Part shown: positions 1,884-36,817 of the stretch, in pieces
Layout: each line of letters starts with the position of its first letter
Position numbering within the stretch: position 1 is the first letter of the stretch
From: an uncultured Gammaproteobacteria bacterium
Lineage (GTDB): Bacteria > Patescibacteriota > Microgenomatia > UBA12405
DNA length: 58,534 nucleotides
NCBI GenBank assembly: GCA_964396145.1
Contig: CAYNEE010000003.1
Span: forward strand, 1 to 58,534
Direction of reading: 5' to 3'
Program-made: the position numbers and the translations under genes
Notes under the pieces: generated by a model
The model's input: the letters and a program-made list of their open reading frames with translations, nothing else
Told to the model about the DNA's origin: nothing
Databases searched by the model: none

Positions 1884-3193
1884 AATCATTTACCAATGTT
1901 TGGAAAATCTTGTTGATTATTTTTTTTTCCCTCCTATTAAGAATTTTTCTATCAAACGTCACTGTTCCTGTTGGCGATATTTTGGTTCACCAGGAATGGG
2001 CTAAAAGTTTATATCAAGAGGGGACCCGGGGTTCATATTTTCGTGAAGGCTGGACATATTCTCCGCCGACTCAACCATCACTCATGATGCTGGCTTATTC
2101 AGGCTCAAGATCAATTTATGAAAACAGAAATGTATTTTCTGCTATGCACAATCTTTTAAAAATTCCCCCTGCCTCTGTTTTATTGGGTTTTCAAAAATAT
2201 GGTCAAATTTTAACTTTGAAAATCTGGGAATTTTTAGCAACTCTAATTATCGCCTTCGTTTTCTATTTTTATTTTTCCAACCAAAAGTCATCAAAAATTG
2301 GTCTAATAATTTTTACTTTAATTTTATTTCACCCCATCTTAATTTTTACAAATTCCGTTTGGGGACAAAATGATTTGATACCGACCATGTTTGCTTATAT
2401 CTCCTTTCTTTTAATTTTTTCAAAGTACATTTACTATTCACCCATCATTTTTTTCTTGGGGGTTTTATTTAAGCCAACAATAATAGTTCTAACACCATTA
2501 TTTGCCATTGTATTTTTATTTTTCTATTTTAAAAACAAAAAAAATTTTTTAATCCTATTACCAATCATGTTGATAATCACAAGCTTTCTCTATCTTTCTT
2601 TTAAACCATTTATACCTACAGGGATTTCTCCTATTAATTACGTTCGAGACATTTACAATCACCGCATTAGTAATTCCTCAAAAGGATTAAATTTAGCCTC
2701 AGTTTCGGCTTTCAATCTTTATTCTTTATTATTTAACATCGATAAAACCTATGCCACTAAAACTCCACTGATCAGCATAGGTCTGCTCCTTTATATCCTG
2801 ATAAATGTAGTTTTCATTTATCATTTTTTAAAATCTAAAAATCATAGTTTTTCTCATTTACTTTTTACGATTTATTTTCTAGGCCAAGGCAGTTTTTTAC
2901 TTTTAACTAATATGTTAGAAAGATATTTTTTCCCGGCACTTTTAGCGAGCATTTTGATAATGGTTTTATATTGGAAAAAGTTTGGTCGGCTTATGCTTTT
3001 ACAACAATTAATTTGGTTTTTGAATTTAATTTACGCCTATTACCATCGTCAAAGCGAATTTATTAGTTATGTTTTCAAAGAAAATAACTTCATCTTTGTT
3101 CGTTTGTTGTCTTTTTGTAGTTTGCTAATTTTTTTCTTATTGACCAAAAAATATTTAATTTTAGTCAAATTTAAAAATGAAAAATTTTCTTAG
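1880..3193 (+). CDS. Polytopic GT-C-type membrane glycosyltransferase, HERY-motif family (Gpi18/ALG6-ALG8-like, COG5542-like), paralogue A
   Basis: More than 10 hydrophobic segments. Loop-1 motif GDILVHQEW, then YSPPTQPSLMMLAY, WGQNDLIPTMFAY and C-terminal NMLERYFFPALL. The same motif order occurs in 3177-5225 (C-terminal half) and 6864-8150. Confidence 0.55.
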   Translation: MKSFTNVWKILLIIFFSLLLRIFLSNVTVPVGDILVHQEWAKSLYQEGTRGSYFREGWTYSPPTQPSLMMLAYSGSRSIYENRNVFSAMHNLLKIPPASVLLGFQKYGQILTLKIWEFLATLIIAFVFYFYFSNQKSSKIGLIIFTLILFHPILIFTNSVWGQNDLIPTMFAYISFLLIFSKYIYYSPIIFFLGVLFKPTIIVLTPLFAIVFLFFYFKNKKNFLILLPIMLIITSFLYLSFKPFIPTGISPINYVRDIYNHRISNSSKGLNLASVSAFNLYSLLFNIDKTYATKTPLISIGLLLYILINVVFIYHFLKSKNHSFSHLLFTIYFLGQGSFLLLTNMLERYFFPALLASILIMVLYWKKFGRLMLLQQLIWFLNLIYAYYHRQSEFISYVFKENNFIFVRLLSFCSLLIFFLLTKKYLILVKFKNEKFS

Positions 3194-5225
3194 TATTATT
3201 ATCCCCACCTGGAATACCGCAGAAATTACTCTAAAATGTGTCCGATCTCTTCAAAAATATCTCAAAAATTTTCCTCACGAAATTATTATCGTTGATAATG
3301 CTTCTACTGATAATACAGTCGCAAAGTTTAAAAAAGAAAAGGGGATTGTCCTCATCCAAAATAAAAAGAACTTAGGTTTTGCTAAAGCCTGCAATATTGG
3401 ATCAAAAAAATCAAAAGGGGATTATCTCTTTTTTCTCAACTCCGACATGATAGCCCTCGATAATAGCCTCATTAAAATGTGCGAATACCTAAAAAATAAC
3501 CCTAAAATAGGCCTTATTGGTCCAAAGTATCTTAATATCGACCGATCAGTTCAGGGCTCTGTTTTTCCACCCCAAACTCCTCTTAATGCTTTGAAAGAAT
3601 TTTGGCTGGGAAAAAATGCTTACTCCAAATACTCTCCTCGGTCTAAAAAACCCATCGAAGTCCATTCCCTTTCCGGTGGAGCCATATTAATTTCTAAGAA
3701 GTTGTTTAATGAGGTTGGCGGTTGGGATGAGCGTTATTTTATGTACTTTGAAGACCTAGAACTTTGTCGTCAGATCAAAAAGTTAGGTTATAAAATTTTT
3801 TATTATCCACAGTGTCGCTTCGTCCACCGCCATGGCGCCAGTGGCCAAAAACTGGCTGACTCCAGCAACCAATGGCGTCGACTAGTTCCCAGTTCGAAAA
3901 TTTATCATGGACATCTTACACACTACTATCTCTTTTCAATAACCTGGCTCGCTCAAAAAATCAATAAATTAAACATTAAAAAAATTTTATTACTCGCATT
4001 TATTATAAGATTATTTTTACTTCCATGGATATATCACGGTGATATTACAGTAACTTATTGGTGGGGAAAATTTGCCGCCGAATTCACCTGGAGAGGTTAC
4101 TATGATTGGCTAAATTTTGGCGGATACGGTCGCCCTGACCAACCAATGCTAAATATCTTTTATGTTTGGCTTGTTCGTCTTTTTTATTTACTAGTCCACC
4201 AAATTATTTGGTTTATTAATGTAAATATTCCTGCTTTTCCCTCAAAAATAATGAGCTGGTTTTTCCTGCATGGCAACCAGGTTTTATTGAAACTACCCAT
4301 GATTATTGCGGATACCGCAATTATCTATTTTGTATATTCCTTTGTTAGCAAATCTTTGTCAAAAACTAAAGCAACTTTTGCTGCTATTTTTCTGGCACTT
4401 TATTTACCCATGATTTATAACAGTGCTCTTTGGGGGAGCGGAGATAGTATTATCAATCTCCTGGCTTTACTCGCTATTTATTTCCTTTATCATAAAAAAT
4501 ATCTTCTTTTTACTTTCCTCTTCCTTTGTTCTATTTTGTACAAGTTTTCTCTGGCTATATGGTCACCAGTAATTCTTACAATTCTTATTTATCAACGAAT
4601 TAAACTCGCAGACATTATTAAATCAGTTGGTCTTTCTGTAATTTTTATTTACCTAGTCTCTTTTCCTTTTGCCACAAAAAATCCTTTTATCTGGTTTTGG
4701 GAAACTATAACTCAAAAAATCATGCCCGGTGCAATGCCACAAATTACTTCTAATGCTATGAATTTCTGGGGAGTTATATTTGGATTGAAGCCGCGTCTTG
4801 ATGAAACTTTAGTTTTTAATCTTATTTCTTTTAGACAACTTTCCTTGTTAATTTGTCTAGTTTTTTACATTTATATCTGCGTAAAACTTTATAAAAACTT
4901 CTCCATTAAAAATGTTTTACTAACCCTGGTTCAAATTACTCTGGTAACCTTTACTTTCATGACCCGCATGCACGAGCGATATACCTATCCAGCCCTGATC
5001 CCTTTACTACTTTTATCGCTATATGATCGGAAGTTTTTTAAATACTTTATTATTTTATCTGTCACCCATTGTTTGAACGTATATAATTGGTGGTGGATCC
5101 CCAAAATCCCCTTTCTCATTACTTTACTTAAATCAGAAGTAACTACGAGAATTATTAGCCTAATTCAAACTTTATTAACAATTAGCCTCCTCTCGACAAA
5201 GTTATTTACCTCTAAAAATGAATAA
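3177..5225 (+). CDS. Bifunctional fusion: N-terminal GT2 glycosyltransferase (about aa 1-260) plus C-terminal HERY-motif GT-C membrane glycosyltransferase (about aa 262-682), paralogue B
   Basis: GT2 part: LSIIIPTWNT, IIIVDNASTDNT, NLGFAKACNIG, FLNSDM, FEDLELCRQIKKLGY. GT-C part: NIKKILLLAFIIRLF, HGDITVTYWW, GRPDQPMLNIFYVW, WGSGDSIINLLAL, RMHERYTYPALIPLL. No stop or start codon at the junction. Confidence 0.75.
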   Translation: MKNFLSIIIPTWNTAEITLKCVRSLQKYLKNFPHEIIIVDNASTDNTVAKFKKEKGIVLIQNKKNLGFAKACNIGSKKSKGDYLFFLNSDMIALDNSLIKMCEYLKNNPKIGLIGPKYLNIDRSVQGSVFPPQTPLNALKEFWLGKNAYSKYSPRSKKPIEVHSLSGGAILISKKLFNEVGGWDERYFMYFEDLELCRQIKKLGYKIFYYPQCRFVHRHGASGQKLADSSNQWRRLVPSSKIYHGHLTHYYLFSITWLAQKINKLNIKKILLLAFIIRLFLLPWIYHGDITVTYWWGKFAAEFTWRGYYDWLNFGGYGRPDQPMLNIFYVWLVRLFYLLVHQIIWFINVNIPAFPSKIMSWFFLHGNQVLLKLPMIIADTAIIYFVYSFVSKSLSKTKATFAAIFLALYLPMIYNSALWGSGDSIINLLALLAIYFLYHKKYLLFTFLFLCSILYKFSLAIWSPVILTILIYQRIKLADIIKSVGLSVIFIYLVSFPFATKNPFIWFWETITQKIMPGAMPQITSNAMNFWGVIFGLKPRLDETLVFNLISFRQLSLLICLVFYIYICVKLYKNFSIKNVLLTLVQITLVTFTFMTRMHERYTYPALIPLLLLSLYDRKFFKYFIILSVTHCLNVYNWWWIPKIPFLITLLKSEVTTRIISLIQTLLTISLLSTKLFTSKNE

Positions 5226-6852
5226 AAAAATAACCTTGGTGCTTTTGCTTATTTTCACCTTTTTAATCAGATTTTTGTTTCTTGACAAAAACCCACCCGC
5301 ACTTTTTTTTGATGAAGTTGACGCTGCTTACCAGGCTGAGATTTTTAACATGCAGCAAGGTGACTATTTTGGCAATAAGTATCCCGTCCATTTTCATTCC
5401 TTAGCTGATTGGCGCACTCCTTTATATATCTACTCTGTTTCTCTAGTCAAAACCGTTGTTAACCACCCGGAGATATCAGTTCGCCTTCCATCAGTCATTT
5501 TTAGCACTCTTTCGGTTTATTTCTTTTACCTTTTGACAAATTCATTTTTAGCTACCGCCCTCTTTAGTCTCAACCCTTGGTCCATACATTACGGACGCAG
5601 CGCTTTTGAAGTCTCAGGAATGCTTATGGCTCTTTTGGGAGGTTTCTATTATCTTAAAAAATATTTTACTAATTATCATCTTTTTTATTTATTTCTTTCC
5701 GTTTTATTCTTCATTCTAACGCCATATTTTTATAGTACTAGTAAAGCCTTCTTGGTTTTTTTGGCCCTCGGCATCTTAATCATTTACTGGCATCAATTAA
5801 AAAAAATACCTTTAAAACATTGGTTTATAGGCTTATTTTTATGTATCATTCTTTTAGCTCCACTTGGTCTAGATACACTTAATGGTCGTGCTGGTTTCCG
5901 ATTTTCTTATATAAACATATTTCATGATCCTCATAGTGCTGATAAAGTCAATTTTGAACGTTATAGTGACTATATTTTATCTTCGCCGTCGAGTCTTTTG
6001 TCATCAAAAATAAACCATAATAAAATTACCTTGGTTTTAAATCGCTTTATTAATAATTATTTTTCTGCATTTTCTACTGATTTTCTTTTTATTAGAGGAG
6101 ATAGTAATTCACGCCACGGTTTTGATGGACACGGTCTTTTCTATTATATTGATGCCTTATTAATTATTTTGGGACTGGTTGGTATTTATAAACAAAAAAA
6201 AGTTTCTGAAACGGACAAATTTTTCATTTTTCTACTCATTACTGCGCCTATTCCTTTTTCTTTGACTACTGATTCCACCGGTGGTCATGCCACCCGTTTA
6301 ATTTTAATGCTACCTTCTCTAATCTATCTGGTCTACCGTGGCGCCCTAATTGTTAAAAAAAGTTCCAAACTCCTTTTTAAAATATTGTTACTTGTATATT
6401 TAGTATCTGTATTTCACTTTTACCACTTCTATCGCTATGACTACCCACAGAAAAACGCTATGTACTGGCAAGCCAACGTAAAAGAATCCGTCGAGGCTAC
6501 AAAAAAATACTCTCAGCCAATTTACTTTTCTTCCTTTTATGAATCGTTCTTGCCATTTTTTTTATATTATCAACCCTATCTTCCTGTTGATGCCCCCAGC
6601 CTCCACTTACATCCAGTGGACAGCGACATAATCAGTGGTAGCAGCCTTGACAGCCATTACTTCTTTGGACATATAAAATGGAACAATTTTAATAAGATAT
6701 CCATACCACCAAGTATTTTTGTAGTTCCTGCCACTGAGCTGAGCCAGTTACCTTTAGATAAGAATCAACAACCTCTTCTAAAACAACTTGAATTTATACC
6801 CAAAAAATATATTAACTCACAAGACTTCTATATTTTTAGTTATGAAAAATAA
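5218..6852 (+). CDS. ArnT/PMT-type (PMT_2-like, GT39/GT83-like) GT-C glycosyltransferase, array copy 1
   Basis: Polytopic protein of 544 aa. Loop-1 FFDEVDAAYQAE, VRLPSVIF, FIRGDSNSRHGFDGHG, GGHATRL, and a C-terminal soluble domain. The architecture is shared with the five downstream copies. Confidence 0.7.
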   Translation: MNKKITLVLLLIFTFLIRFLFLDKNPPALFFDEVDAAYQAEIFNMQQGDYFGNKYPVHFHSLADWRTPLYIYSVSLVKTVVNHPEISVRLPSVIFSTLSVYFFYLLTNSFLATALFSLNPWSIHYGRSAFEVSGMLMALLGGFYYLKKYFTNYHLFYLFLSVLFFILTPYFYSTSKAFLVFLALGILIIYWHQLKKIPLKHWFIGLFLCIILLAPLGLDTLNGRAGFRFSYINIFHDPHSADKVNFERYSDYILSSPSSLLSSKINHNKITLVLNRFINNYFSAFSTDFLFIRGDSNSRHGFDGHGLFYYIDALLIILGLVGIYKQKKVSETDKFFIFLLITAPIPFSLTTDSTGGHATRLILMLPSLIYLVYRGALIVKKSSKLLFKILLLVYLVSVFHFYHFYRYDYPQKNAMYWQANVKESVEATKKYSQPIYFSSFYESFLPFFLYYQPYLPVDAPSLHLHPVDSDIISGSSLDSHYFFGHIKWNNFNKISIPPSIFVVPATELSQLPLDKNQQPLLKQLEFIPKKYINSQDFYIFSYEK

Positions 6853-6863
6853 GATTGTGTAAT

Positions 6864-8150
6864 ATGCTTCTCCCAAAAATTAAAATAGATATCAAAAAAA
6901 TCTTATTGTCGGCTTTTGTTTTAAGAATTATTTTAGTGTTTATATCCCAATCTCACCCTGACATATTAAACCACGTTGACTGGGGTAACCGCTTGCTGGA
7001 GCTTGGTCCCTATAAATTTTATGAAAATATTTTTTGGGGAGTCTCTTGGCCAAACCAACCTTTTGCCAGTATGTATCTTTTTGCTCTTATTAAACTTGTA
7101 CGCGATTTAATTTTCAATATTTTTTTGTTTTTAAACAATCAATTTTCCCTCTTTCCTTCTTTTGTTATTCCTGTTTTAGAGCAAAATTTACAAATTTGGT
7201 TGCTTAAACTGCCTTTTATTTTAGCCGATCTTGGTATTGCCTTTTTTGTTTATAAATTTTTAACTGAGAGAAAAAATAAACATGCACTTTTAGCCGCCAT
7301 CATGTTCCTTTTCAATCCGATTGTCATCTACAACTCAACCATCTGGGGACAAACTGACAGTCTCATTAATTTACTTATTCTGGCCGGATTTTACTTTGTC
7401 TATAAAAAACATTATTTTTTAGGAATTTTTCTAACTCTAATTTCTTTTACCTTTAAACTGTCTCTAATTATCTATTTACCTTTATTCTTAATTTTATTAT
7501 GGAAGCGTCGCAATGATTGGAAAAAAATATTATTCTCATTTTTGTTTACCTTTGTTACCATTGTTCTTTTGGCGTGGCCTTTTTCAATTTATCCCAATCC
7601 ACTCAAGTGGCTTCTCTATCTTTATCAAAACCGGGTTTTACCCCGACAGGGCAATATGCTCAACGGCAATGCCTTTAATTCTTGGTTTATCCTCTACGGC
7701 CCTGACTTTTCTCTTTCAGACTCTCTGCCACTCCTGGGTATAGCCGCCAAAAAAATCTCTTATGCTTTCACTATTATTGTTTTGTTTTTTATCTATTTAA
7801 AAATATTCATTAGAAAATCTACTTCTACTGATTTCATTTTTGCCCTCTTTTTGACTGCTTTTACCGCCTTTTTATTTTTAACCAATATGCATGAACGTTA
7901 TCTTTACCCTATCTTTCCATTGTTTAGTTTATTAATTTTTCTTATACCCAAATATTTTAATCTTAAACACCTGGTTATTATCAGTTTCATTCACTTACTC
8001 AATCTCTATAACCTTTGGTTTTATCCTCTTATCACCCCACTAAAATCTATTTTAATCTTTTCAGACTTCCTAGTCTGCAAAATTCTCAGTATAATTCTCT
8101 TAGTTTATTATGTTAAATACCTCTACGCCTATTTTAAGAAGAGTTACTAA
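6864..8150 (+). CDS. HERY-motif GT-C membrane glycosyltransferase, paralogue C
   Basis: I prefer the ATG at 6864 over the track's TTG at 6855. Motifs IDIKKILLSAFVLRII, HPDILNHVDWG, WPNQPFASMYLFAL, WGQTDSLINLLIL and NMHERYLYPIFPLF. It is closest to the C-terminal half of 3177-5225. Confidence 0.55.
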   Translation: MLLPKIKIDIKKILLSAFVLRIILVFISQSHPDILNHVDWGNRLLELGPYKFYENIFWGVSWPNQPFASMYLFALIKLVRDLIFNIFLFLNNQFSLFPSFVIPVLEQNLQIWLLKLPFILADLGIAFFVYKFLTERKNKHALLAAIMFLFNPIVIYNSTIWGQTDSLINLLILAGFYFVYKKHYFLGIFLTLISFTFKLSLIIYLPLFLILLWKRRNDWKKILFSFLFTFVTIVLLAWPFSIYPNPLKWLLYLYQNRVLPRQGNMLNGNAFNSWFILYGPDFSLSDSLPLLGIAAKKISYAFTIIVLFFIYLKIFIRKSTSTDFIFALFLTAFTAFLFLTNMHERYLYPIFPLFSLLIFLIPKYFNLKHLVIISFIHLLNLYNLWFYPLITPLKSILIFSDFLVCKILSIILLVYYVKYLYAYFKKSY

Positions 8151-9738
8151 AGTCAGGACATGTCTTATTTTATTTTTATTGGCATTTTTTCTCCTCCGTT
8201 TTTCATTTATCAACAACACCCCTCTATTTGGAGATGAAATCGATGTCGGTAATCAGGCTTATTCTCTCCTAAAGACAGGTCGTGACTATCGAGGTAACTT
8301 ATTTCCTACCTATATCCAATCATTTTCAGAGTCACGAGCTCCTCTTTTAATGTACCTCACCATTCCTTTTATTGCCATTTTTGGGCAAAATTCTTTAGGG
8401 GTGAGACTACCTCCCTTGCTTTTTTCCTTACTAGCTTTGTACTTCTTTTATCTCTTGGTAAAAAAGGTCTCAAAAAATAAACCATTGGCTTTGATTGCCG
8501 TTTTTATTATGGGAACTTCACCGATATTTTTTCATTACTCTGCCCTGGCTTTTGAATCAAGTTTATTATTGCTACTAGTACTGGCCGGAACTTATTATTA
8601 CTTGGAAAATAAATGGTTACTTTCCTTTATGTTATTTGCTTTATCTTTTTATACCTACAATACGGCTAATGTTTTTACGCCCCTGATTTTACTTTTTCTT
8701 TTCATAAGTCACCTCAAAAAAATTAAAAACTATAAAAGATTTTTTCTATCCACTCTCCCGGCTCTATTTTTGCTGTTACCTCTTATCTATCAAATTGTCT
8801 TTGGTTCAGCCGCCAGCCGCTTTTCCTTAATCAGCATTTTTGGCCATCAAAACACTGAAACTGTTGAAATCAAGCGCTCAAGCGCCCCCAATCCTTATTC
8901 TATTTCTGAAAAGATTTTTCACAATCGACCTCGTGAAATTGTTCAAGTCTTTTTAAAAAATTATCTGACCTCTTTTTCTCCCCAAACACTCTTTATCAGT
9001 GGTGATTCCAATCCCCGCCACTCCGTCCCCGGCTTTGGGTTTTTATTGTTATCCCTGGCTCTATTATCACCCCTGATATTCCTTTCAAAACCCAATAAAT
9101 TATTTATCTATTGGCTTTTCATCGCTCCCATAGCTTCTTCGCTTACTCTAAACGGTGGCGAGCATGCCACTCGACTTTTTATAATTATACCTGCCATCGT
9201 CTATCTTTATTCATTGGCTTTTTCCATACTTTGGTCAAAATCAAAAACTATTTCTTATTTATTTTTAATAGCCCTGATTTTTTGCTTTCTTTCTTTTTTA
9301 CACGAGTACCGGACTCATTACCCAAAAGACCATTACCAGTCCTGGGGCTACGGTTATCAGGAGGTTTTTCAAAACGAAGATCTAAAAAATTATCCACTTT
9401 ATATCTCCAACCCAAATTACAATTTACTTAACCCCTACCTTTTTTATCAAAAGCCGGATTTAAGAATTCTCCAATCCGGTTTTATAGATCAACCCAAATT
9501 CTTAACAGACGGCTTGGAGGGCTATGAGCTGGGCCAGGCCCGTTTTATTATTAATTGGCATGGCGACACTCTTGAAACTATCAAAAATATAGCCAAACCA
9601 GGTGATATCTTTGTCTTGACCCAATTAAAAGACATCCCTGGCGATATGATTTTAGACAAATTCACTGGTTTCAATCTTATTAATGTTATAAAAACACCAC
9701 TAGATCAACCTCTCTACCAAATTATCCAAAAACAATGA
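8110..9738 (+). CDS. ArnT/PMT-type GT-C glycosyltransferase, array copy 2
   Basis: FGDEIDVGNQAYSLLKTGRDYRG, VRLPPLLF, FISGDSNPRHSVPGFG, GEHATRL. The start is uncertain because the 8110 ATG overlaps the upstream gene by 41 nt. Confidence 0.7.
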   Translation: MLNTSTPILRRVTKVRTCLILFLLAFFLLRFSFINNTPLFGDEIDVGNQAYSLLKTGRDYRGNLFPTYIQSFSESRAPLLMYLTIPFIAIFGQNSLGVRLPPLLFSLLALYFFYLLVKKVSKNKPLALIAVFIMGTSPIFFHYSALAFESSLLLLLVLAGTYYYLENKWLLSFMLFALSFYTYNTANVFTPLILLFLFISHLKKIKNYKRFFLSTLPALFLLLPLIYQIVFGSAASRFSLISIFGHQNTETVEIKRSSAPNPYSISEKIFHNRPREIVQVFLKNYLTSFSPQTLFISGDSNPRHSVPGFGFLLLSLALLSPLIFLSKPNKLFIYWLFIAPIASSLTLNGGEHATRLFIIIPAIVYLYSLAFSILWSKSKTISYLFLIALIFCFLSFLHEYRTHYPKDHYQSWGYGYQEVFQNEDLKNYPLYISNPNYNLLNPYLFYQKPDLRILQSGFIDQPKFLTDGLEGYELGQARFIINWHGDTLETIKNIAKPGDIFVLTQLKDIPGDMILDKFTGFNLINVIKTPLDQPLYQIIQKQ

Positions 9739-11363
9739 AAAAATTAGCCGTAATTTTAATTATCCTTTTAGGCTTTTTTTTACGTTTATATAAACTGGGA
9801 GAATTACCTAATAGCTTTACCCCGGATGAAGTTGCCCAGGGCTACACCGCCTACTCGCTTTTAGAAACAGGTCGGGATGAATGGGGGAGCCGTAATCCTT
9901 TTATTCTGCGCTCTTTTGGTGACTTCAAGGCCCCCCTTCAAACCTGGCTGATAATGCCCTCAATTAAAGTTTTTGGTCTGACCCCCTTTGCCATCCGCCT
10001 CCCTAACGCCCTTCTGTCTTCATTTGCCCTGCTTACCACTTATTTACTCACTAATCTACTCTTCAACTCTTTTCCTATTTCCATTTTTACTCTCCTGCTT
10101 TTAGCTATCTCTCCATGGCATTTACCCATGTCTCGATTGGCTCTGGAGGCGAACCTCACAGTTTTCTTTTCCTCGTTTGCCACCTATATATATCTAAAAA
10201 ATCCCAAATCTCCTAAATTCCAACTATTGGCTTCTTTATTTTATTCTCTAAATTTATTTACCTATCATTCGGCCAAATTTTTTACACCATTTTTAATCCT
10301 TTTTACTTACTTATATGTTCATCAGCCCCAAAACCTTAAACCTTTTTTTGTTTCTCTTAAAAAAAATATTTATTTAATTCTGCCTTTCACTTTATTCTTT
10401 ATACTAAATGCTTTCTACTCCCTCTTCTCTTCCGCCCGGGTGGGCGATGTCTCTATTTTCAATCCCACCGATCGCTGGAGCGGTCTTTCCTTTGACCGCT
10501 ACCTTCTCGTTCAAAATTATCTTCCCGACCTTATTTCCCGAATTTTTAATAACAAGATATTTTATATAATTAAAAACTTTGGTAATTCTCTTCTTTCTTA
10601 TTTTTCTCCTCAGTTTTTGATATCTCAGGGCGCTGGAGAGACTACTTATGGTATGCTTCCGGGCTTTGGTGTCTTGGGCTTAATCCCAACCATCGGTTTA
10701 ATCTACGCCATTTACTTAATCTTCAAAAAAAATAACCCTCACCGTCAGACTTTGGTCTATATTTTGGCGCTAGTTTTAGTCGCTTCTATTCCCGCAGCTC
10801 TGGCCAAAGGCAGCTACCCTGGCAATCGCCTAGCCTCAATGCTTCCTTTTATCTTAATTCTTTCCGCCTACGGCCTGTATAAAATATTTAGCCATTCTCG
10901 TAGTTTGTTTCTAGTTTCTAGTATCTTATTTCTTACCTCTACCTCTTCCTTTTTAGCTGCCTATTTCTTCGGCGCCAACCACCGCCTTTCCGATGGCATG
11001 CTCTATGGCCGTCGTCAAGCGGTAGAATATATCCAGTCCCGCAATCCTTCAGCCAAAATTCTTTTTAGTCGCTCTCTTTCTCAACCCCAGGCCTACTATA
11101 CTTTTTTTGCTAAAACTGATCCCAAATTAGTCCAGGCCGCCTCTCCAGAGTGGTTAAACTATCAAAAAGAAAATAAAAACTTTTTAGACCAGTTAGGTGA
11201 ATATCATCTAGATAATATCACCTTTGGTAACATTTCCCGCGAATCTTTCAGAGATTTTGATTTTGTCGTCGGCAAGCCTGATGAATTTGTCGATATCAAG
11301 CCACAGAAAATTATTTACCATCCCAATTCTCAAAAAGCCTCTCTTTATATTTATGAAAAATAA
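9735..11363 (+). CDS. ArnT/PMT-type GT-C glycosyltransferase, array copy 3
   Basis: TPDEVAQGYTAYSLLETGRDEWG, FGDFKAPL, IRLPNALL. Polytopic, with a C-terminal soluble domain. ATGA overlap with copy 2. Confidence 0.75.
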   Translation: MKKLAVILIILLGFFLRLYKLGELPNSFTPDEVAQGYTAYSLLETGRDEWGSRNPFILRSFGDFKAPLQTWLIMPSIKVFGLTPFAIRLPNALLSSFALLTTYLLTNLLFNSFPISIFTLLLLAISPWHLPMSRLALEANLTVFFSSFATYIYLKNPKSPKFQLLASLFYSLNLFTYHSAKFFTPFLILFTYLYVHQPQNLKPFFVSLKKNIYLILPFTLFFILNAFYSLFSSARVGDVSIFNPTDRWSGLSFDRYLLVQNYLPDLISRIFNNKIFYIIKNFGNSLLSYFSPQFLISQGAGETTYGMLPGFGVLGLIPTIGLIYAIYLIFKKNNPHRQTLVYILALVLVASIPAALAKGSYPGNRLASMLPFILILSAYGLYKIFSHSRSLFLVSSILFLTSTSSFLAAYFFGANHRLSDGMLYGRRQAVEYIQSRNPSAKILFSRSLSQPQAYYTFFAKTDPKLVQAASPEWLNYQKENKNFLDQLGEYHLDNITFGNISRESFRDFDFVVGKPDEFVDIKPQKIIYHPNSQKASLYIYEK

Positions 11364-12903
11364 AATTATCTTACTTCTGATTATTCTCTCGGGTCTTTTT
11401 TTTAGACTTTGGCAGATAAATTCTCTACCGCCCTCTCCAAATTGGGACGAAGTTTCTCTTGGTTACAATGCCTATTCCATCCTCAAAACCGGCAAAGACG
11501 AGTGGGGGAACTATCTACCTTTAATTTTTCGAGCTTATGGCGACTATAAATTACCGGTCTATGTTTATGCCTTAGTTCCTTTTATTGCCATTTTTGGACT
11601 TCATTCCTGGTCGATTAAAATTATTTCTATCCTTGCTGGTACCGCCCTCATCTATATTGCCTATCTAACCACGAAAAAAATCACTAAATCTGAAAATATT
11701 GCCCTAATTTTCGCCGCTTTAATTGCTTTTAGCCCCTGGTCTATTTTTCTCTCCCGGATTGCGCTTGAGGCCAATCTTTTTTTGCTGCTTTTTGCTCTTT
11801 CTTTTTATTTTCTTGTCTCCAAAAAACTATTACCCTCCACCTTCTTTTTTGCGCTCTCGCTTTTTACCTACAATAGCTCCCGGGTATGGCTGCCCTTCTA
11901 TTTAATTGCTCTCGGCTGCACAATTTATGCTCAAAAAATAAAATTTAAAATTATTGATTTTCTCCCTCTAGTGCTTTCAGCAATTATTCTCATTTTCCAA
12001 TTCAGCAATCAGTCTGCCACTGCCCGCTATCAATGGGTGTCCATCCTCGACCAAGGAGCTGTTAACCGTATTAACGAACTGCGCAGTACTTATCCTCGCT
12101 ATCTAGTTAACAAGGTTACATATTTTATTTTCGAAGCTGGCAAAAATTACCTCAGTCACTTTAATCCTCTATATCTTTTTAAAACCGGTGGCTCCCATTA
12201 CCAATTCAACATCCCCAACTTTTATCTTCTCCTGCCAGTTCTTATCATTTTTTTTATTCTTGGCCTTTACTACTTATTTACTCATCTAAAACACTCTTCG
12301 TTTTTATTATTATTGTTTTTTCTTTTTGTCTCTCCTCTCCCCTCAGCTATTACCCGTGATGCGCCCCACATTCTCAGAGGTCTAACTTTTGTCTATTTTT
12401 CTACTTTAATTATCTCCCTGGGCTTTTCTTCTTTCAAAAAATACACTTCAATTGCCATAATTCTTCTTTTTTTGAGTGTTTTTCTTTCATTTTGGCCCAA
12501 ATACAGGGATTATTCCCGTCAATACTCCCAAAGCTGGCAGTATGGTTATCGGGAAGCAATTGACTATCTCAAAGACAATTATTCTCTCTACGATGAAATA
12601 ATTGTGACTAAAAAGTACGGTGAAGCTCATGAATTTGTTTTATTTTATTGGCCTTGGAATCCTAAAATCTATCAGGAGGACTCCAAAAAAAGCTGGAACT
12701 ATCACTCTGAGTGGTACTGGGTTGATTCTTTTGATAAATTCAAATTCCTAGATGACCGGGATATTAAAAATTTTAACCCTCATAGCACCCATACTCTGTT
12801 AATTACTACCCCCGGCAACTATAATTTAAACAAGTTTAAAAAAGTTAAAACTATTTACTTTTTGGACCAAACACCCGCCTTTGATATTGTCGTTCATGAA
12901 TAA
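11353..12903 (+). CDS. ArnT/PMT-type GT-C glycosyltransferase, array copy 4
   Basis: I chose the internal ATG at 11353 (MKNKIILLLIILSG), which matches the N-termini of the paralogues. The track's 11224 start would run 140 nt into copy 3. Motifs NWDEVSLGYNAYSILKTGKDEWG and YGDYKLPV. Confidence 0.75.
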   Translation: MKNKIILLLIILSGLFFRLWQINSLPPSPNWDEVSLGYNAYSILKTGKDEWGNYLPLIFRAYGDYKLPVYVYALVPFIAIFGLHSWSIKIISILAGTALIYIAYLTTKKITKSENIALIFAALIAFSPWSIFLSRIALEANLFLLLFALSFYFLVSKKLLPSTFFFALSLFTYNSSRVWLPFYLIALGCTIYAQKIKFKIIDFLPLVLSAIILIFQFSNQSATARYQWVSILDQGAVNRINELRSTYPRYLVNKVTYFIFEAGKNYLSHFNPLYLFKTGGSHYQFNIPNFYLLLPVLIIFFILGLYYLFTHLKHSSFLLLLFFLFVSPLPSAITRDAPHILRGLTFVYFSTLIISLGFSSFKKYTSIAIILLFLSVFLSFWPKYRDYSRQYSQSWQYGYREAIDYLKDNYSLYDEIIVTKKYGEAHEFVLFYWPWNPKIYQEDSKKSWNYHSEWYWVDSFDKFKFLDDRDIKNFNPHSTHTLLITTPGNYNLNKFKKVKTIYFLDQTPAFDIVVHE

Positions 12904-14521
12904 AAAACATTTTATACTTTTAATTTTTATAACTCTTTTAGCCTTTGCTTTTAGGATCTATCGGGTCAATTCTTATCCGCCGCTTTTGTGGGATGAAGCC
13001 GCCATTGGTTACAATGCTTATTCCATCCTTAAAACCGGCCGTGATGAACATGGGGCTTTTTTGCCACTCATTTTCAAATCTTTTGGCGACTACAAACCAG
13101 GAATATACATATACCTAACCGTACCCTTTGTTGCCCTCTTTAATCTCGATCCCTTAGCTGTCCGACTCCCCTCGGTTATCGCCGGTTCTCTCTTACCTCT
13201 GCTTTTATATTTTCTCATCAAAACTATCTCTCCCAAATCTGAAAAACAGGCCATTATTGCCGCTATTTTAATTGCCTTTAATCCCTGGAATATTCACTTT
13301 TCTCGTGGCGGCTGGGAAACCAATTTACTTACCTTTGAACTGCTTCTAGGTGCTCTTCTCTTTATCAAAAAACATTATTTGCCGTCTTCTCTCATTTTTG
13401 CTCTTAGTCTATACACCTATCAGGCAGGCAAAATGATTACCCCTTTAATTATTGGAAGTCTTTTTATCTACCAATTTACCATCCTTAAAATAAATTTTAA
13501 AAACATTTTTTTAAAATTTATCCTGCCTCTATTTCTGCTCTCATTGCCCATCGCTTATGGTCTGCTTTTCTCTTCCGACAGCAACCGACTCAAAGTTTTA
13601 TCTCTAAGTTCTTATCCTCGCTCACAAGAGGAAACTGATTTAATTATCAAAGAATCAAGTCTTCTTGATTATAAAATTTTTCACAGTCAACCAATATTTT
13701 TTGCCAGAAACTTTCTTTCCCGTTATTTCAACCATTTTTCCACCCGCTTTCTTCTCTTTGAAGGGGACTGGCAAAACCTGCGTCATTCTGCCCCATATAT
13801 CGGCGTTATTCTCTACCCATCTTTCATTTTTTTAATTATTGGACTACTTAACTACTCATCTAGTTCTCTGTTTTTTCTGCTCTGGCTTTTACTCGCTCCC
13901 ATCCCCGGCGCTTTGACCCGCGACACCGTCACTGCTGTCCGGACTATGTCTATGTCCATTCCTCTTATTTATTTTGCTGCGCTTGGCCTTAGCAAGACTT
14001 TGGCTTATCTTAAAACTCATAAATTCTTTTTTTACTTTCCCATTTATTTATTTATCCTTTTTACCTATCTCCTCTCTTTTTCCTATTATCAGGACCTTTA
14101 TTACCATCATATGATTCAAAAAGATCCTGATCAACTACTTTATGGCTATGAACAGGCAGTAAAATATGTTCTGGCCAACAAGGAAAAATATCAAAATAAA
14201 CAAATCTATTTTACCGATTTTTATGGACAACCTTATATTTATTACCTCTTTTTCTCAAAATACCCCCCCGAGCTTTATCAAAAACAATCCCATTTAGTTG
14301 AAAATTCTCAGGGTGACACTGGTACCGTCAAACAAATAGATAATCTCAACTTCCGAACTGCTCACTTTGATTTCATAAGAGAAAACCCTGGAGCTTTAGG
14401 TATTTTTGCTCAGGAAGAGGTTTATCGTCAAGGTTTGGAATCCCGTCCTGAGTTCAAAAAATTTATCCCTCTTAGTCCGATTAATACTATTTCCACTTTT
14501 TATGCTTACCACCAAGATTAA
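12896..14521 (+). CDS. ArnT/PMT-type GT-C glycosyltransferase, array copy 5
   Basis: ATG at 12896 (MNKKHFILL). Motifs LWDEAAIGYNAYSILKTGRDEHG, FGDYKPG, VRLPSVIAG and FEGDWQNLRHSAPY. Confidence 0.75.
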   Translation: MNKKHFILLIFITLLAFAFRIYRVNSYPPLLWDEAAIGYNAYSILKTGRDEHGAFLPLIFKSFGDYKPGIYIYLTVPFVALFNLDPLAVRLPSVIAGSLLPLLLYFLIKTISPKSEKQAIIAAILIAFNPWNIHFSRGGWETNLLTFELLLGALLFIKKHYLPSSLIFALSLYTYQAGKMITPLIIGSLFIYQFTILKINFKNIFLKFILPLFLLSLPIAYGLLFSSDSNRLKVLSLSSYPRSQEETDLIIKESSLLDYKIFHSQPIFFARNFLSRYFNHFSTRFLLFEGDWQNLRHSAPYIGVILYPSFIFLIIGLLNYSSSSLFFLLWLLLAPIPGALTRDTVTAVRTMSMSIPLIYFAALGLSKTLAYLKTHKFFFYFPIYLFILFTYLLSFSYYQDLYYHHMIQKDPDQLLYGYEQAVKYVLANKEKYQNKQIYFTDFYGQPYIYYLFFSKYPPELYQKQSHLVENSQGDTGTVKQIDNLNFRTAHFDFIRENPGALGIFAQEEVYRQGLESRPEFKKFIPLSPINTISTFYAYHQD

Positions 14522-16058
14522 ATTAACCATTATTTTGATCATCGCTGTTTTACTTCGTTTCTGGAATATTAATTTTCTGCCCTCTCTCAATCCTGATGAA
14601 GCCGCTCTCGGTTACAATGCCTATTCACTTCTAGAAACCGGCAAAGATGAGCATGGGATTGCCTGGCCCCTTCATTTCAAATCATTTAGTGACTATAAGC
14701 CCGGTGGCTACGTCTACCTCTCTCTCCCTTTTATAAAGCTTCTGGGCTTGACTCCTCTAGCGGTGCGTCTTCCCAACCTGATTCTTTCAGTTTTAACTAT
14801 TTATATTTTTTATAAATTAATTCTATTGCTATTTAAGTCTGAAGCTCTGTCACTCTATAGTTCTCTAGTTCTCACCCTATCTCCGTGGCACATTCACTTT
14901 TCCCGGGGAGCCTGGGAGAGCTCTGTCGCCGTTTTTTTTATAGTTCTGGGCATTTACTTTTTCTATAAATTTCTAGAAAAGCCAAAATCAAAATATATTT
15001 TTCTTTTTCCTCTTCCCTTTGTTGTCTCGCTATATGTCTATCATTCGGCTCGTATTATCGCTCCTCTTTTGGTTTTAACTTTATTTATCCTTAACTTCAA
15101 AAAACTACTTCACCATTTATCTCTTCATCTAATCATCTCCATAATCCTTGCCCTACTTCTCACTATTCCTGTACTCTCTTCTTTTCTTAAAAGTGGTGGT
15201 ACTACCCGCTTTAGTGGCGTCGGTCTTACTGCTGACACCGGACCTATTTCCCGTTCCAAAGAACTATTAAATCACCATTCCCAAATAAACTTTTTTCAAA
15301 AAATCGTCCACAATCAGCGAATTCAATATCTACTTTCATTTAACCAAAAATATTTTTCCCATTATGATTTTAATTTCCTTTTTATCGAGGGCGATGCCGT
15401 ACCGCGTTCGCGTTCTCCGGAAATAGGTCAGATGTATTTGCTGGAATTACCCTTCCTTCTCTACGGCCTCTACTTTTTTATTAAATCAAAAGAAATTAAC
15501 ATTAAATTAAAATACTTCTTCGTTCTCTATCTCCTTATCTCTCCTCTAGCCTCATCCCTAACCTTCCAGGCTCCTTCAGCCCTAAGGGCTCTTTCTCTGG
15601 TCATACCTCTCTCATTTTTCACCGCCTTTGGTCTCTACAAAACAATTAATTCATCCTCTATTTATATTGTCCTATTTCTGTATCTAGTTTCTTGTGTCTA
15701 TTTTCTTGACGCTTATTTTGTTCATTCTCCCCAGCGTTATTCTTTTGCCTGGAATAAGGGATTCAAAGACATTGTTCCCCTCATCGAAAAAGAAAAAAAT
15801 AACTACCAAAATATTTATTTGACTGATAAATACGACCAGCCATATATTCTTTACCTCTTCTATAGCATGTATCCGCCGTCAGAAATTCAAAGTAAAATCA
15901 ATCCTACTCCCCCCGATCATTTCGGTTTCTCTACTGTCCTTCAGATTGACAATATTCACTTTAAAATTCCAGAGACTATTCCTTCAAATTCTCTAGTCAT
16001 CGAAGCCGACGATTTTGAGAAAAGCGGCCAAAGCTTTAAAATACATTCAGTTCTATGA
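14502..16058 (+). CDS. ArnT/PMT-type GT-C glycosyltransferase, array copy 6
   Basis: Internal ATG at 14502 (MLTTKIKLTIILI) chosen by analogy with the paralogues. Motifs NPDEAALGYNAYSLLETGKDEHG, FSDYKPGG, VRLPNLIL and IEGDAVPRSRSPEIG. Confidence 0.75.
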   Translation: MLTTKIKLTIILIIAVLLRFWNINFLPSLNPDEAALGYNAYSLLETGKDEHGIAWPLHFKSFSDYKPGGYVYLSLPFIKLLGLTPLAVRLPNLILSVLTIYIFYKLILLLFKSEALSLYSSLVLTLSPWHIHFSRGAWESSVAVFFIVLGIYFFYKFLEKPKSKYIFLFPLPFVVSLYVYHSARIIAPLLVLTLFILNFKKLLHHLSLHLIISIILALLLTIPVLSSFLKSGGTTRFSGVGLTADTGPISRSKELLNHHSQINFFQKIVHNQRIQYLLSFNQKYFSHYDFNFLFIEGDAVPRSRSPEIGQMYLLELPFLLYGLYFFIKSKEINIKLKYFFVLYLLISPLASSLTFQAPSALRALSLVIPLSFFTAFGLYKTINSSSIYIVLFLYLVSCVYFLDAYFVHSPQRYSFAWNKGFKDIVPLIEKEKNNYQNIYLTDKYDQPYILYLFYSMYPPSEIQSKINPTPPDHFGFSTVLQIDNIHFKIPETIPSNSLVIEADDFEKSGQSFKIHSVL

Positions 16059-16831
16059 AAAAAACTACACTCTCGATAGCCATTGCCACCTATAATGAAG
16101 AAAAAAACATTGCCAAATGTTTAGACGCCGTCAAATCCTGGGTTGATGAAATTGTAATTGTCGACGGGGAGTCTTCTGATAATACCGTCAAAATAGCCCA
16201 AAAACACCCAAAAGTTAGACTAATTTCTACTACCAACAAACCCATGTTTCATCTCAATAAGCAGATGGCTATCGATGCCTGTAAAAGCGACTGGATTCTC
16301 CAGCTTGATGCCGATGAAATTGTTACTCCTGCTCTTAAAACTGAAATATTAAAAACTATTCCCGACACCAAATACAATGGCTTTTGGCTAAAACGGCAAA
16401 ACTATTTTTTGGGTCGTTTTCTCAAAAAAGGTGGTGTCTATCCTGACCCTACTCTCCGTCTTTACCGCCGTGGCCTGGGCAAACTTCCCTGTAGAGATGT
16501 TCATGAACAAGCAGTGGTTGAAGGCGCTGTGGCTACACTAAAAAATGACCTCCTGCATTACGCCGATCCCAATTTCTCTCGCTATCTTTTGAGAAACGAC
16601 CGTTACACTTCACTTTTAGCCTCAGATTTCAAAAAAGCCGGTCTCAAAACCGGCCCCCTAACTTTTATCCAATATTTTATCTTTAAGCCTCTATACTGGT
16701 TCTTTTTGGCTTATTTTCGTCACAAGGGCTTTGTCGACGGCTTTCCCGGTTTTGTTTTCGCTTGGTACTCATCCCTTCGTTTTCCCATTGCCTACATAAA
16801 AGTTTTTGAGATGGAACATGAAAAAATTTAA
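16055..16831 (+). CDS. GT2-family glycosyltransferase (WaaE/KdtX-like small soluble GT2)
   Basis: LSIAIATYNEEKNIAKCLDAV, IVIVDGESSDNT and LQLDADEIV. ATGA overlap with array copy 6. Confidence 0.75.
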   Translation: MKKTTLSIAIATYNEEKNIAKCLDAVKSWVDEIVIVDGESSDNTVKIAQKHPKVRLISTTNKPMFHLNKQMAIDACKSDWILQLDADEIVTPALKTEILKTIPDTKYNGFWLKRQNYFLGRFLKKGGVYPDPTLRLYRRGLGKLPCRDVHEQAVVEGAVATLKNDLLHYADPNFSRYLLRNDRYTSLLASDFKKAGLKTGPLTFIQYFIFKPLYWFFLAYFRHKGFVDGFPGFVFAWYSSLRFPIAYIKVFEMEHEKI

Positions 16832-17888
16832 GGTCGGCATCGACGTCAGCCCCCTTAGCGATGGCAATTCCAAAAGGGGAGTCGGCTACTATACCCGCCA
16901 CCTAGTTGAGGCTCTTCAAAAAGAAATTAAAAATAACCCTGATTATCAGCACTATCAAATTCATTTAATTGAAGATTCTAGACTTAAGACTGAAGATTTT
17001 GATCTTATCCACTATCCCTATTTTGACCCTTTCAAGCTGACCTTACCTCCTACCACTAAACCCTACGTTGTCACTTGTCACGACCTCATTCCTCGCGCTT
17101 TTAAAAAACATTTCCCTGTTGGTGTAAAAGGAGAAATAAAATGGCTCATTCAAAAATATCGTTTACAAAATTCCGACTATATAATTTGCCCATCGCATTC
17201 GGCTAAATATCAAATTCTTGACCAAATTAAATATCCCGCCGAAAAAATATATGTGACTTACGAGGCTGCCTCTTCTAATTTTAAGCCTCGCCCTCTCAGT
17301 TCTAAATTAAAAAATATTTTTAAAAAATATAAATTGCCTAAAAAATTTGTCCTATTTGTCGGTGATGTCAATTGGAATAAAAATGTCCCTGGGCTCGCTA
17401 AAGCCTGTATAGCTCTTAAATACCCTCTAATTATCGCTGGCGGTGCCGCCACCAAAGAGGTTCCCGACCACCCTTGGACTCAAGACATCCTTTGGCTTCA
17501 ACGTCAACGGTCTCCTTTTTTAAAACTGCTTGGTTTTGTACCAGATGAAGACTTAACCCTACTCTATAATTTAGCTACCATATATTGCCAACCTTCTTTT
17601 TCTGAGGGCTTTGGTCTGCCTCTGGTTGAAGCCATGCAGTCAGGTACACCCGTGGCTTACTCTCAGGAAAGTTGCCTACCTGAAATTATGGATTTTTCTG
17701 GAGAATTTTTTAATCCTTACTCTCAAATTTCCATAAAAAGGGCTCTAAAAAAGCTCTGGAATTCACCTCAGCTGCGACGTGAATGCTCCATTTTAGGCCA
17801 AAAAAGAGCTCAATTTTTCTCTTGGCAAAGCACAGCCTTGTCTACACTAGCTGTTTATAAACTAGTCGAATTTGATGAAAAAAAATAA
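16818..17888 (+). CDS. GT4-family glycosyltransferase
   Basis: I prefer the ATG at 16818 (MKKFKVGIDV) to the TTG at 16806. Motif EGFGLPLVEAMQSGTPVAYSQESCLPEI. Confidence 0.8.
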   Translation: MKKFKVGIDVSPLSDGNSKRGVGYYTRHLVEALQKEIKNNPDYQHYQIHLIEDSRLKTEDFDLIHYPYFDPFKLTLPPTTKPYVVTCHDLIPRAFKKHFPVGVKGEIKWLIQKYRLQNSDYIICPSHSAKYQILDQIKYPAEKIYVTYEAASSNFKPRPLSSKLKNIFKKYKLPKKFVLFVGDVNWNKNVPGLAKACIALKYPLIIAGGAATKEVPDHPWTQDILWLQRQRSPFLKLLGFVPDEDLTLLYNLATIYCQPSFSEGFGLPLVEAMQSGTPVAYSQESCLPEIMDFSGEFFNPYSQISIKRALKKLWNSPQLRRECSILGQKRAQFFSWQSTALSTLAVYKLVEFDEKK

Positions 17889-29001: not shown

Positions 29002-29002
29002 A

Positions 29003-35291: not shown

Positions 35292-35299
35292 ATAGTTTA

Positions 35300-35322
35300 T
35301 ATTATACTTTCAAAGTATAATA
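35300..35322. promoter_or_regulatory. Perfect 11-bp inverted repeat (TATTATACTTT-C-AAAGTATAATA) in a divergent intergenic region, with a TATAAT hexamer readable on each strand
   Basis: Read directly from the sequence. It sits in the 42-nt gap between the start codons at 35291 (-) and 35334 (+). Confidence 0.35.
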
Positions 35323-35333
35323 AATACAGAACC

Positions 35334-36816: not shown

Positions 36817-36817
36817 T

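Follow-up and report, generated by a model that had tools for sequence, protein, structure and literature searches.

Nine consecutive GT-C glycosyltransferase genes in a glycan-synthesis island of a groundwater Candidatus Shapirobacteria genome: a candidate extracytoplasmic glycan assembly line

What does a small-genome bacterium make with six diverged copies of one membrane glycosyltransferase gene, kept nearly side by side? The question is raised by a 58,534-nucleotide stretch of DNA (hereafter the window; contig CAYNEE010000003.1 of GenBank assembly GCA_964396145.1, positions 1 to 58,534 of the forward strand) from a groundwater, small-genome member of Candidatus Shapirobacteria, within the Candidate Phyla Radiation (CPR). 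The original prediction for this DNA had read six of its genes as a tandem array of ArnT/PMT-type glycosyltransferases of the GT-C superfamily. We analysed these six genes (family A, copies 1–6) together with three genes of a second family that the prediction had missed (family B, B1–B3). We consider it probable (roughly 60%) that all nine encode active polytopic GT-C enzymes, which catalyse at the outer face of the membrane and together form a non-redundant line for the assembly or decoration of a glycan.

The family-A genes lie at 5218-6852 (copy 1), 8110-9738 (copy 2), 9735-11363 (copy 3), 11353-12903 (copy 4), 12896-14521 (copy 5) and 14502-16058 (copy 6). All are on the plus strand, are free of internal stops and, counted from ATG starts, encode proteins of 544, 542, 542, 516, 541 and 518 aa, respectively. 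The longest mechanical open reading frames (ORFs) of copies 4–6 open at upstream TTG codons (11224, 12881 and 14406), and in the alignment the ATG starts yield N-termini in register with those of the other copies. BLASTP of every pair gave near full-length matches with 26–37% identity (32% over 506 aa for copies 1 and 2; copy 3, too, is homologous to the others over its full length). Judged from these alignments, the resemblance is real paralogy and not chance, which bears out the predicted set of six plus-strand genes for proteins of 516–544 aa with one architecture. The array is, however, interrupted, as B3 (6855-8150) separates copies 1 and 2. The overlaps are 4 nt for copies 2 and 3, 11 nt for copies 3 and 4, 8 nt for copies 4 and 5, and 20 nt for copies 5 and 6; the 41 nt that had been given as the upper end of the range is the overlap of B3 with copy 2. 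At its N-terminus, copy 2 is 11 aa longer than the other copies, and Val at its residues 12 and 16 suggests a candidate later alternative start, with which the overlap would be a few nucleotides.

Alignment of the six copies with MAFFT revealed 19 invariant columns and no conserved stretch of 7–10 columns. The invariant columns include D32-E33, D49, Y172, R228 and R360 (numbered as in copy 1 throughout). The Asp-Glu pair that follows the first transmembrane (TM) helix is present in all six copies, as claimed, and also in 125 database homologues; R360 is the Arg of the predicted ‘HATRL’ helix. The [VI]RLP segment is found in five of the six copies, again as predicted, copy 4 having IKII instead. 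The GD..R[HS] loop, which had been ascribed to every copy, occurs in only four (copies 1, 2, 5 and 6) and is lacking in copies 3 and 4.

Are these proteins GT-C enzymes, and which way do their conserved loops face? Searches of the PDB with family profiles, from sequence alone, gave marginal matches (E 0.33–0.8 and 0.035). We therefore turned to structure prediction: an AlphaFold2 model of copy 5, built with 125 homologues, had a pLDDT of 91.2 and a pTM of 0.92, and a Foldseek search of the PDB with this model returned 21 matches at E≤1e-3, all of them GT-C enzymes. They include STT3 (E 3e-7), AglB, PglB, ALG12 (TMq 0.55), ArnT (TMq 0.54) and Pmt4; the full-length matches had TMq values of 0.46–0.55, and EmbC and AftD matched more weakly (E 0.014–0.8). 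The model contains 11 TM helices. Counting of Lys and Arg in the short loops between them gave 7 residues on the predicted inside versus 1 on the outside, and by the positive-inside rule the N-terminus of copy 5 is therefore inside. In the model, the loop with the Asp-Glu pair (residues 24–85), the large loop 226–306 (EL4) and a 132-aa C-terminal alpha/beta domain (410–541) are thus predicted to lie outside, as in ArnT. Both the outward orientation of the Asp-Glu loop and a C-terminal soluble domain of about 110–130 aa had been anticipated, and the model agrees with them.

Profile searches supported the ArnT/PMT-type assignment for some of the copies. Copy 2 (PMT_2, PF13231; 47.3 versus 26.1 bits) and copy 4 (PMT, PF02366; 35.9 versus 22.7 bits) exceed the Pfam gathering scores, and copy 6 exceeds both (PMT_2 32.4, PMT 31.9 bits). 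Copy 3 remains slightly under them (PMT 21.1, PMT_2 20.6 bits), and copies 1 and 5 have no Pfam match even at E≤10. PF13231 is, nevertheless, carried by most database homologues, including most orthologues of copy 1. None of the more specific NCBIfam models was reached: the ArnT model (NF009784, lipid IV(A) L-Ara4N transferase) matched copy 3 only, with 20 bits versus a cut-off of 567; the best score with TIGR03663, for Agl23-type archaeal PMT_2 proteins, was 34.9 (copy 5) versus 126; and with NF047440, for Leptospira LA_3751/LA_3752, it was 26.7 (copy 2) versus 200. We also considered two narrower identities. A true protein O-mannosyltransferase (GT39: Pmt1/2/4, POMT, actinobacterial Pmt) would have the PMT_4TMC C-terminal membrane domain and, in eukaryotes, a MIR domain; the Pfam matches cover the N-terminal PMT/PMT_2 module only, with no MIR or PMT_4TMC match in any copy. 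An oligosaccharyltransferase (STT3/AglB/PglB, GT66), prompted by the top Foldseek match, was rejected because the WWDxG motif of these enzymes is absent (WWD or W[WY]DxG in none of the six copies). The most fitting label for the six copies is that of uncharacterised GT-C_A enzymes of the PMT_2/ArnT-like branch.

The three family-B genes belong to the same run. B1 (1880-3193, plus strand) encodes 437 aa with D33, WGQxD and (H/L)ERY. B2 (3177-5225, plus strand) encodes an N-terminal cytoplasmic GT2 domain (residues ~1–260; Pfam Glycos_transf_2, 90.9 bits over residues 6–180) fused to a C-terminal family-B membrane domain (3960-5225). B3, on the plus strand like the others, encodes 431 aa. The three proteins are 23–35% identical (23–27% for B1 with the other two), the C-terminal 421 aa of B2 aligning with B1 and B3, and have in common a loop-1 Asp, WGQxD and (H/L)ERY; in B3, the motif residues R348 and Y349 are at invariant or almost invariant positions. 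No Pfam GT-C family reached threshold in B1, the B2 membrane domain or B3. Their homologues carry the JGI name ‘Gpi18-like mannosyltransferase’, and a few match Pfam Alg6_Alg8 (PF03155), ALG3 (PF05208) or GT87 (PF09594). An AlphaFold2 model of B3 (pLDDT 94.9) found yeast ALG6 as its best Foldseek match (TMq 0.69, E 1e-7), followed by GPI mannosyltransferase I (0.66), PIG-U and ALG3, so that the predicted structure is of the ALG6/PIG-M-like GT-C_B class. Comparison of the two families with hhalign revealed a common N-terminal module of ~230 residues (97% probability, E 6e-11), in which the Asp-Glu of family A faces a Gly-Asp of family B. Given the family-B membership of 1880-3193, of the C-terminal part of 3177-5225 and of 6855-8150, positions 1880-16058 are therefore a run of nine consecutive GT-C genes, six of family A and three of family B.

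The GT2 domain of B2 is rhamnosyltransferase/EpsD-like and not like dolichol-phosphate-mannose synthase (DPMS). A fusion resembling B2 occurs in locus L031 (~688 aa, 6617-8683), and a GT2-bearing protein (P0121, 681 aa) was found in the database; a GT-A/GT-C fusion could couple inner-face and outer-face steps. Three other membrane proteins of the window, all encoded on the minus strand, were not counted as GT-C: 25466-27196 (hhalign probability against family A 61%), 31598-33544 (50%) and 33519-35291 (5%, and 0.5% when family B was the target). The first of these (576 aa) combines an N-terminal polytopic membrane part with C-terminal TPR repeats; the membrane part is weakly PMT_2-like over TM3–TM7 (27 bits with a hidden Markov model (HMM); the hhalign match has E 8e-5), which makes this protein a possible tenth GT-C of TMTC-like type.

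Is the array peculiar to this genome? Its closest homologues come from Candidatus Shapirobacteria and other Microgenomates metagenome-assembled genomes (MAGs), under the NCBI name ‘glycosyltransferase family 39 protein’; the nearest relative of copy 1 is ~54% identical. Scanning GTDB species representatives with an alignment of copy-1 orthologues yielded 48 loci, and those that are meaningfully named are almost all from Shapirobacteria. HMM scans of the ORFs in these loci revealed arrays throughout, and the 22 loci with full 10-kb flanks had a median of six family-A genes (range 1–8). In a best-hit analysis, one order was kept in ~20 species: copy 1 comes first, and copies 4, 5 and 6 follow after at least one unrelated membrane gene. 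The orthologues of these four core copies are 38–64% identical, with bit scores about twice those to any other copy of the window. Copy-1 orthologues occur in 41 loci and syntenic copy-4 orthologues (38–53% identity) in 27–29; orthologues of copy 5 are 48–59% identical, and those of copy 6, at 50–64%, are always final in the array. The flanks are syntenic as well, with GT2-GT4-GT2 upstream and GT2-GT4-GT2-GT2-radical SAM downstream. In contrast, clear orthologues of copies 2, 3 and B3 are restricted to few species: those of copy 2 (42–46%) to L025 and L037, and those of copy 3 to a group of three, with a 51% orthologue in L025, where the order is B3-c2-c3-c1-c4-x-c5-c6. Conservation across related genomes, proposed as a check on the array, thus holds for an ordered core and only in some relatives for copies 2 and 3.

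Many Third Party Annotation (TPA) MAG records with the title ‘uncultured Gammaproteobacteria bacterium’ have this Shapirobacteria-type array as well (L005, L006, L008, L011, L013, L021, L024–L029 and other loci), at 40–50% identity to copy 1; these titles look placeholder or erroneous. Between the orthologues of copies 1 and 4, most relatives have one to three other large membrane proteins (532–560 aa, 336 aa; for example L001 11632-15962, L003 11619-13217, and in L005, L012 and L044) with a weak Pfam PTPS_related match. These proteins have no homologue in the window, where B3, copy 2 and copy 3 occupy that position.

How old are the duplications? Over 330 within-locus pairs, the median identity was 28.7% and the maximum 38.6%; none of the duplications is thus recent, and all are ancient. 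Clustering at 40–42% identity gave 12–14 groups, at least eight of them with several members, and further orthologue groups exist in relatives with no member in the window. Beyond the 48 loci, Woesebacteria and another Microgenomates lineage have clusters of six to eight PMT_2 genes together with YfhO and ALG3- or PIG-V-like GT-Cs, and arrays of 5–8 genes annotated ‘glycosyltransferase family 39’ are routine in public Microgenomates genomes. The family of copy 5 is large in public data: a phmmer search of 1.84 billion cluster representatives returned 8,084 relatives at E≤1e-3, of which 1,909 at E≤1e-30.

We then asked whether the paralogues look active and distinct. Since synonymous sites are saturated at 38–64% protein identity, we used catalytic residues and region-wise identity in place of dN/dS. 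Among 182 family-A ORFs across 52 loci, the Asp-Glu pair is kept in all except one, a short ORF (~450 aa); Tyr172 is present in 182/182, Arg228 in 179 and Arg360 in 169. Taken with the intact frames of the six copies, this agrees with the prediction that none is decayed. Between the paralogues of the window, EL4 (24.5%) and the C-terminal domain (21.4%) are the least conserved regions. When orthologues of one core copy (1, 4, 5 or 6) are compared, the same two regions are 35–66% identical, at least as conserved as the TM bundle. A conserved acceptor-recognition surface particular to each paralogue would be expected to leave such a pattern. Together with the ordered orthologues and the low identity within loci, it indirectly supports the claim that the copies differ in specificity rather than add dosage.

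What could such enzymes be working on? All 58.5 kb of the window make up an island of glycan synthesis. Its GC content is ~36%, and 286-22854 is packed with overlapping co-directional ORFs. The island holds ~12 GT2 and nine GT4 genes, five methyltransferases, a B12-radical SAM enzyme, a UDP-glucose dehydrogenase, an epimerase/dehydratase, an acetyltransferase, a Wzy_C protein (48635-50017), an ABC-2 exporter, a ManC-like nucleotidyltransferase and a Bac_transf priming enzyme. Nearly every ORF of at least 120 aa is glycan-related, with at least 30 glycosyltransferase genes in the 58.5 kb; no tRNA genes were found in the window.

Starting from the fold, the topology, the conserved catalytic residues, the ancient paralogy, the synteny and this gene context, we infer a donor type, an acceptor and an order of action for the nine enzymes. 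Cytoplasmic GT2 enzymes would load a sugar onto polyprenyl phosphate; for this role the polyprenyl-phosphate-sugar synthase-like protein encoded at 17872-18678 (plus strand) stands out most clearly, and the ManC-like enzyme (54315-55388) may feed this reaction. The best PDB match of 17872-18678 is the dolichol-monophosphate-mannose synthase of P. furiosus (5mlz, E 3e-11), followed by GtrB and ArnC, and a 267-aa GT2 is found at the matching position in L003. A flippase would then move the lipid-linked sugar outward, and each GT-C paralogue would add a sugar to a glycopolymer of the cell surface, at an acceptor position or in a linkage specific to that paralogue; the paralogues would therefore be non-redundant steps. 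The backbone of the glycopolymer would be made by GT2 and GT4 enzymes of the island and exported via the ABC-2 transporter or a Wzy-type route. Copies 1, 4, 5 and 6 would form the conserved core of this line, and copies 2, 3 and B3 would be lineage-variable additions that diversify the glycan. The most economical model is the established scheme of multi-component extracytoplasmic glycosylation (PMC9574508), repeated here with a different linkage for every paralogue.

Several observations weigh against this scheme. The PMT-type Pfam matches fit protein O-glycosylation equally well. Most relatives lack copies 2 and 3, so that the line cannot require every copy. The candidate donor synthase has PpgS, PgfS, AglJ and ArnC as its best NCBIfam matches, all under their cut-offs. 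The candidate flippase, an LPG_synthase_TM membrane protein (41833-42756; Pfam PF03706, 102 bits; NCBIfam TIGR00374 ‘flippase-like domain’, 34.7 bits, under the cut-off of 43.2), is encoded 26 kb from the array on the opposite strand, and no GtrA-family flippase was found. Finally, we infer co-transcription from the gene overlaps only; a scan of positions 1-20000 was uninformative, as its 74 promoter-like sites (versus 56±8) and 17 terminator-like sites (versus 15±4) are at the level of chance.

If the scheme is wrong, the enzymes may be PMT-like protein O-glycosyltransferases, each with its own targets among surface or secreted proteins (for example S-layer proteins, adhesins or pilins) or adding successive protein-linked sugars. 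Copies 4 and 6 exceed the threshold for Pfam PMT, the Asp-Glu of loop 1 is a PMT signature that the profile aligns with the Asp-Glu of C. thermophilum Pmt4, and Pmt4 and Pmt1/2 are among the Foldseek matches; the homologues, moreover, bear the GT39 name of the PMT family (CAZy GT39; Pmt1/Pmt2 6p25, Pmt4 9i5k). The Wzy_C family, to which 48635-50017 belongs, also contains O-oligosaccharyltransferases. However, Pfam reported neither MIR nor PMT_4TMC for any copy, and its matches are confined to the common N-terminal module. In structure, Pmt1/2/4 match no better than ArnT or STT3 do, and the alignment to Pmt1/2 spans only ~260 residues. The context is also of polysaccharide type (ABC-2 exporter, Bac_transf primer, ~20 GT2/GT4 genes), and the genes of the window include none for a candidate acceptor protein. 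We regard protein O-glycosylation as unlikely, but as a serious rival.

Another reading keeps the glycan and gives up the sequence of steps: the paralogues could be independent alternative decoration modules, like those of gtr serotype conversion, used for phage escape or host matching. The variation in copy number from 1 to 8 per locus, the presence of copies 2, 3 and B3 in some species only and the extra orthologue groups outside the window would all fit, and the GT-C side-chain transferases of Gram-positive bacteria do act independently (PMC9574508). A variable serotype module, however, would not be expected to keep a core of four copies in the same order across species at 38–64% identity. 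In gtr or Csd pairs every GT-C has its own synthase, whereas the window holds one clear DPMS-like GT2. We regard independent modules as possible but improbable.

The ArnT side of the resemblance could be taken literally, the enzymes then modifying the head groups of membrane lipids. ArnT (CAZy GT83; PDB 5ezm/5f15) is like the copies in its length of ~540 aa, its GT-C_A fold, the acidic residue that opens the first outer loop, its small outer C-terminal soluble domain and its presumed polyprenyl-phosphate-sugar donor; the structural match (TMq 0.54) and the weak NCBIfam match of copy 3 point the same way. The identity in the structural alignment is, however, 9%, ArnT is a single-copy gene of the arn operon, and the 20 bits of copy 3 are far from the equivalog cut-off of 567. 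Monoderm CPR bacteria are not known to make lipid A, and none is expected in the organism of the array. As a variant, the copies might be redundant or inactive duplicates; the catalytic residues kept in essentially all copies and the ancient duplications argue against redundancy or decay. We consider either version very improbable.

How does the proposed line of non-redundant GT-C steps compare with systems already described? The original prediction held that no contiguous array of one GT-C family was known, which overstated the case, as embC-embA-embB is a contiguous operon of three GT-C paralogues (PMC7305291). The mycobacterial and corynebacterial set for arabinogalactan and lipoarabinomannan (LAM; embCAB, AftA-D, MptA-C, PimE) similarly consists of many outer-face, linkage-specific GT-C paralogues that use polyprenyl-phosphate sugars, and both GT-C classes take part in it. 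It differs in that Emb and AftD exceed 1000 aa and have large carbohydrate-binding domains, and the Foldseek matches are weak; the array is six plus three contiguous genes in an unrelated CPR bacterium with a genome of ~1 Mb, as judged by the contigs of its relatives. GT-C enzymes also act in three- and four-component extracytoplasmic glycosylation of cell-wall polysaccharides (PMC9574508). In these Gram-positive systems a GT2 makes a C55-P-sugar, a flippase moves it, and a GT-C transfers the sugar onto an exported glycopolymer with an ABC-exported backbone. There, each substituent has one GT2 and one GT-C, in contrast to the nine GT-Cs with one clear DPMS-like GT2 found here, and no GtrA-family flippase was detected here. 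Family B, for its part, resembles the eukaryotic GT-C_B enzymes of the endoplasmic reticulum (ER) lumen, ALG6, PIG-M and ALG3, in structure (TMq 0.66–0.69), in the loop-1 Asp and in a conserved motif near the C-terminus. It is unlike them in being bacterial, with 12–18% identity, no Pfam threshold reached by the three proteins of the window and one GT2-fused copy.

The neighbouring genes are in keeping with a glycan island. Directly downstream of the array, on the plus strand, follow a GT2 gene (16055-16831; Glycos_transf_2, 85 bits; at the same position in L001, L003 and L053), a GT4 gene (16806-17888; Pfam Glycos_transf_1 and Glyco_transf_4; syntenic in relatives), the candidate donor synthase, and another GT2 gene of the same co-directional run (18675-19631; Pfam match; syntenic in L003). 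Next comes a B12-binding radical SAM enzyme (19591-21102, plus strand; Pfam Radical_SAM and B12-binding), syntenic in L003 (21482 onward). Its NCBIfam matches are HpnJ/BchE/PhpK-like, under all cut-offs. The enzyme hints that a sugar or the lipid carrier undergoes an uncommon rearrangement or C-methylation. Further along the plus strand are an ABC-2 permease and ATPase (28201-29749; Pfam ABC2_membrane and ABC_tran), a candidate Wzm/Wzt-type polysaccharide exporter, and, at 54315-56046, the ManC-like sugar-1-phosphate nucleotidyltransferase (NTP_transferase with a ManC beta-helix) together with a small Bac_transf phosphoglycosyl transferase (207.8 bits), a putative primer of polyprenyl-PP-glycan. 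Positions 31598-37585 form a sub-island of markedly lower GC content (0.24–0.29 versus ~0.36–0.40 elsewhere) that looks like the hypervariable section of O-antigen-type loci. It encodes two membrane proteins, one of 648 aa with DUF7657/DUF7654 (hhalign probability of only 50% against the GT-C family) and one of 590 aa without a family match, as well as a GT2 and two methyltransferases, one of them FkbM.

The enzymes themselves fall within an established superfamily, and at least half of them within an established Pfam family; their homologues are publicly annotated as GT39, and no new enzymatic principle or mechanism is revealed. What appears undescribed is the scale of the Microgenomates array, its group-wide conservation and the presence of GT-C_A and GT-C_B enzymes in one run: in the literature searched on glycosyltransferases of CPR, Patescibacteria, Microgenomates and Shapirobacteria we found no description of such arrays, which is not proof of absence. 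A wider generalization is possible, if tentative and with the odds against it. The Microgenomates of the CPR may build a stepwise outer-face glycan from polyprenyl-phosphate sugars, with a core of four GT-C_A enzymes and lineage-specific GT-C_A and ALG6/PIG-M-like GT-C_B enzymes, as a bacterial counterpart of the ER-lumenal ALG/GPI or the mycobacterial LAM/arabinogalactan machinery. This glycan might then be a main determinant of host recognition by these ultrasmall episymbionts and of their evasion of phages.

Genomes of the CPR (Patescibacteria) are ~1 Mb in size and lack many biosynthetic pathways. In the window, nonetheless, at least 58 kb serve glycan synthesis almost exclusively, and nine GT-C genes follow one another without a break; with contigs of ~0.5–1 Mb in relatives, this is a large share of the genome. 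For glycobiology, the locus places bacterial relatives of the ALG6/PIG-M class beside ArnT/PMT-like enzymes in one operon-like run, and the four conserved orthologue groups, with their invariant Asp-Glu pair, Tyr and two Arg, and the candidate donor synthase are concrete targets for further work. Conservation of the core across the whole class suggests that an elaborate extracytoplasmic glycoconjugate, with possible roles in, for example, host attachment, protection or phage defence, is central to the life of these uncultivated organisms.

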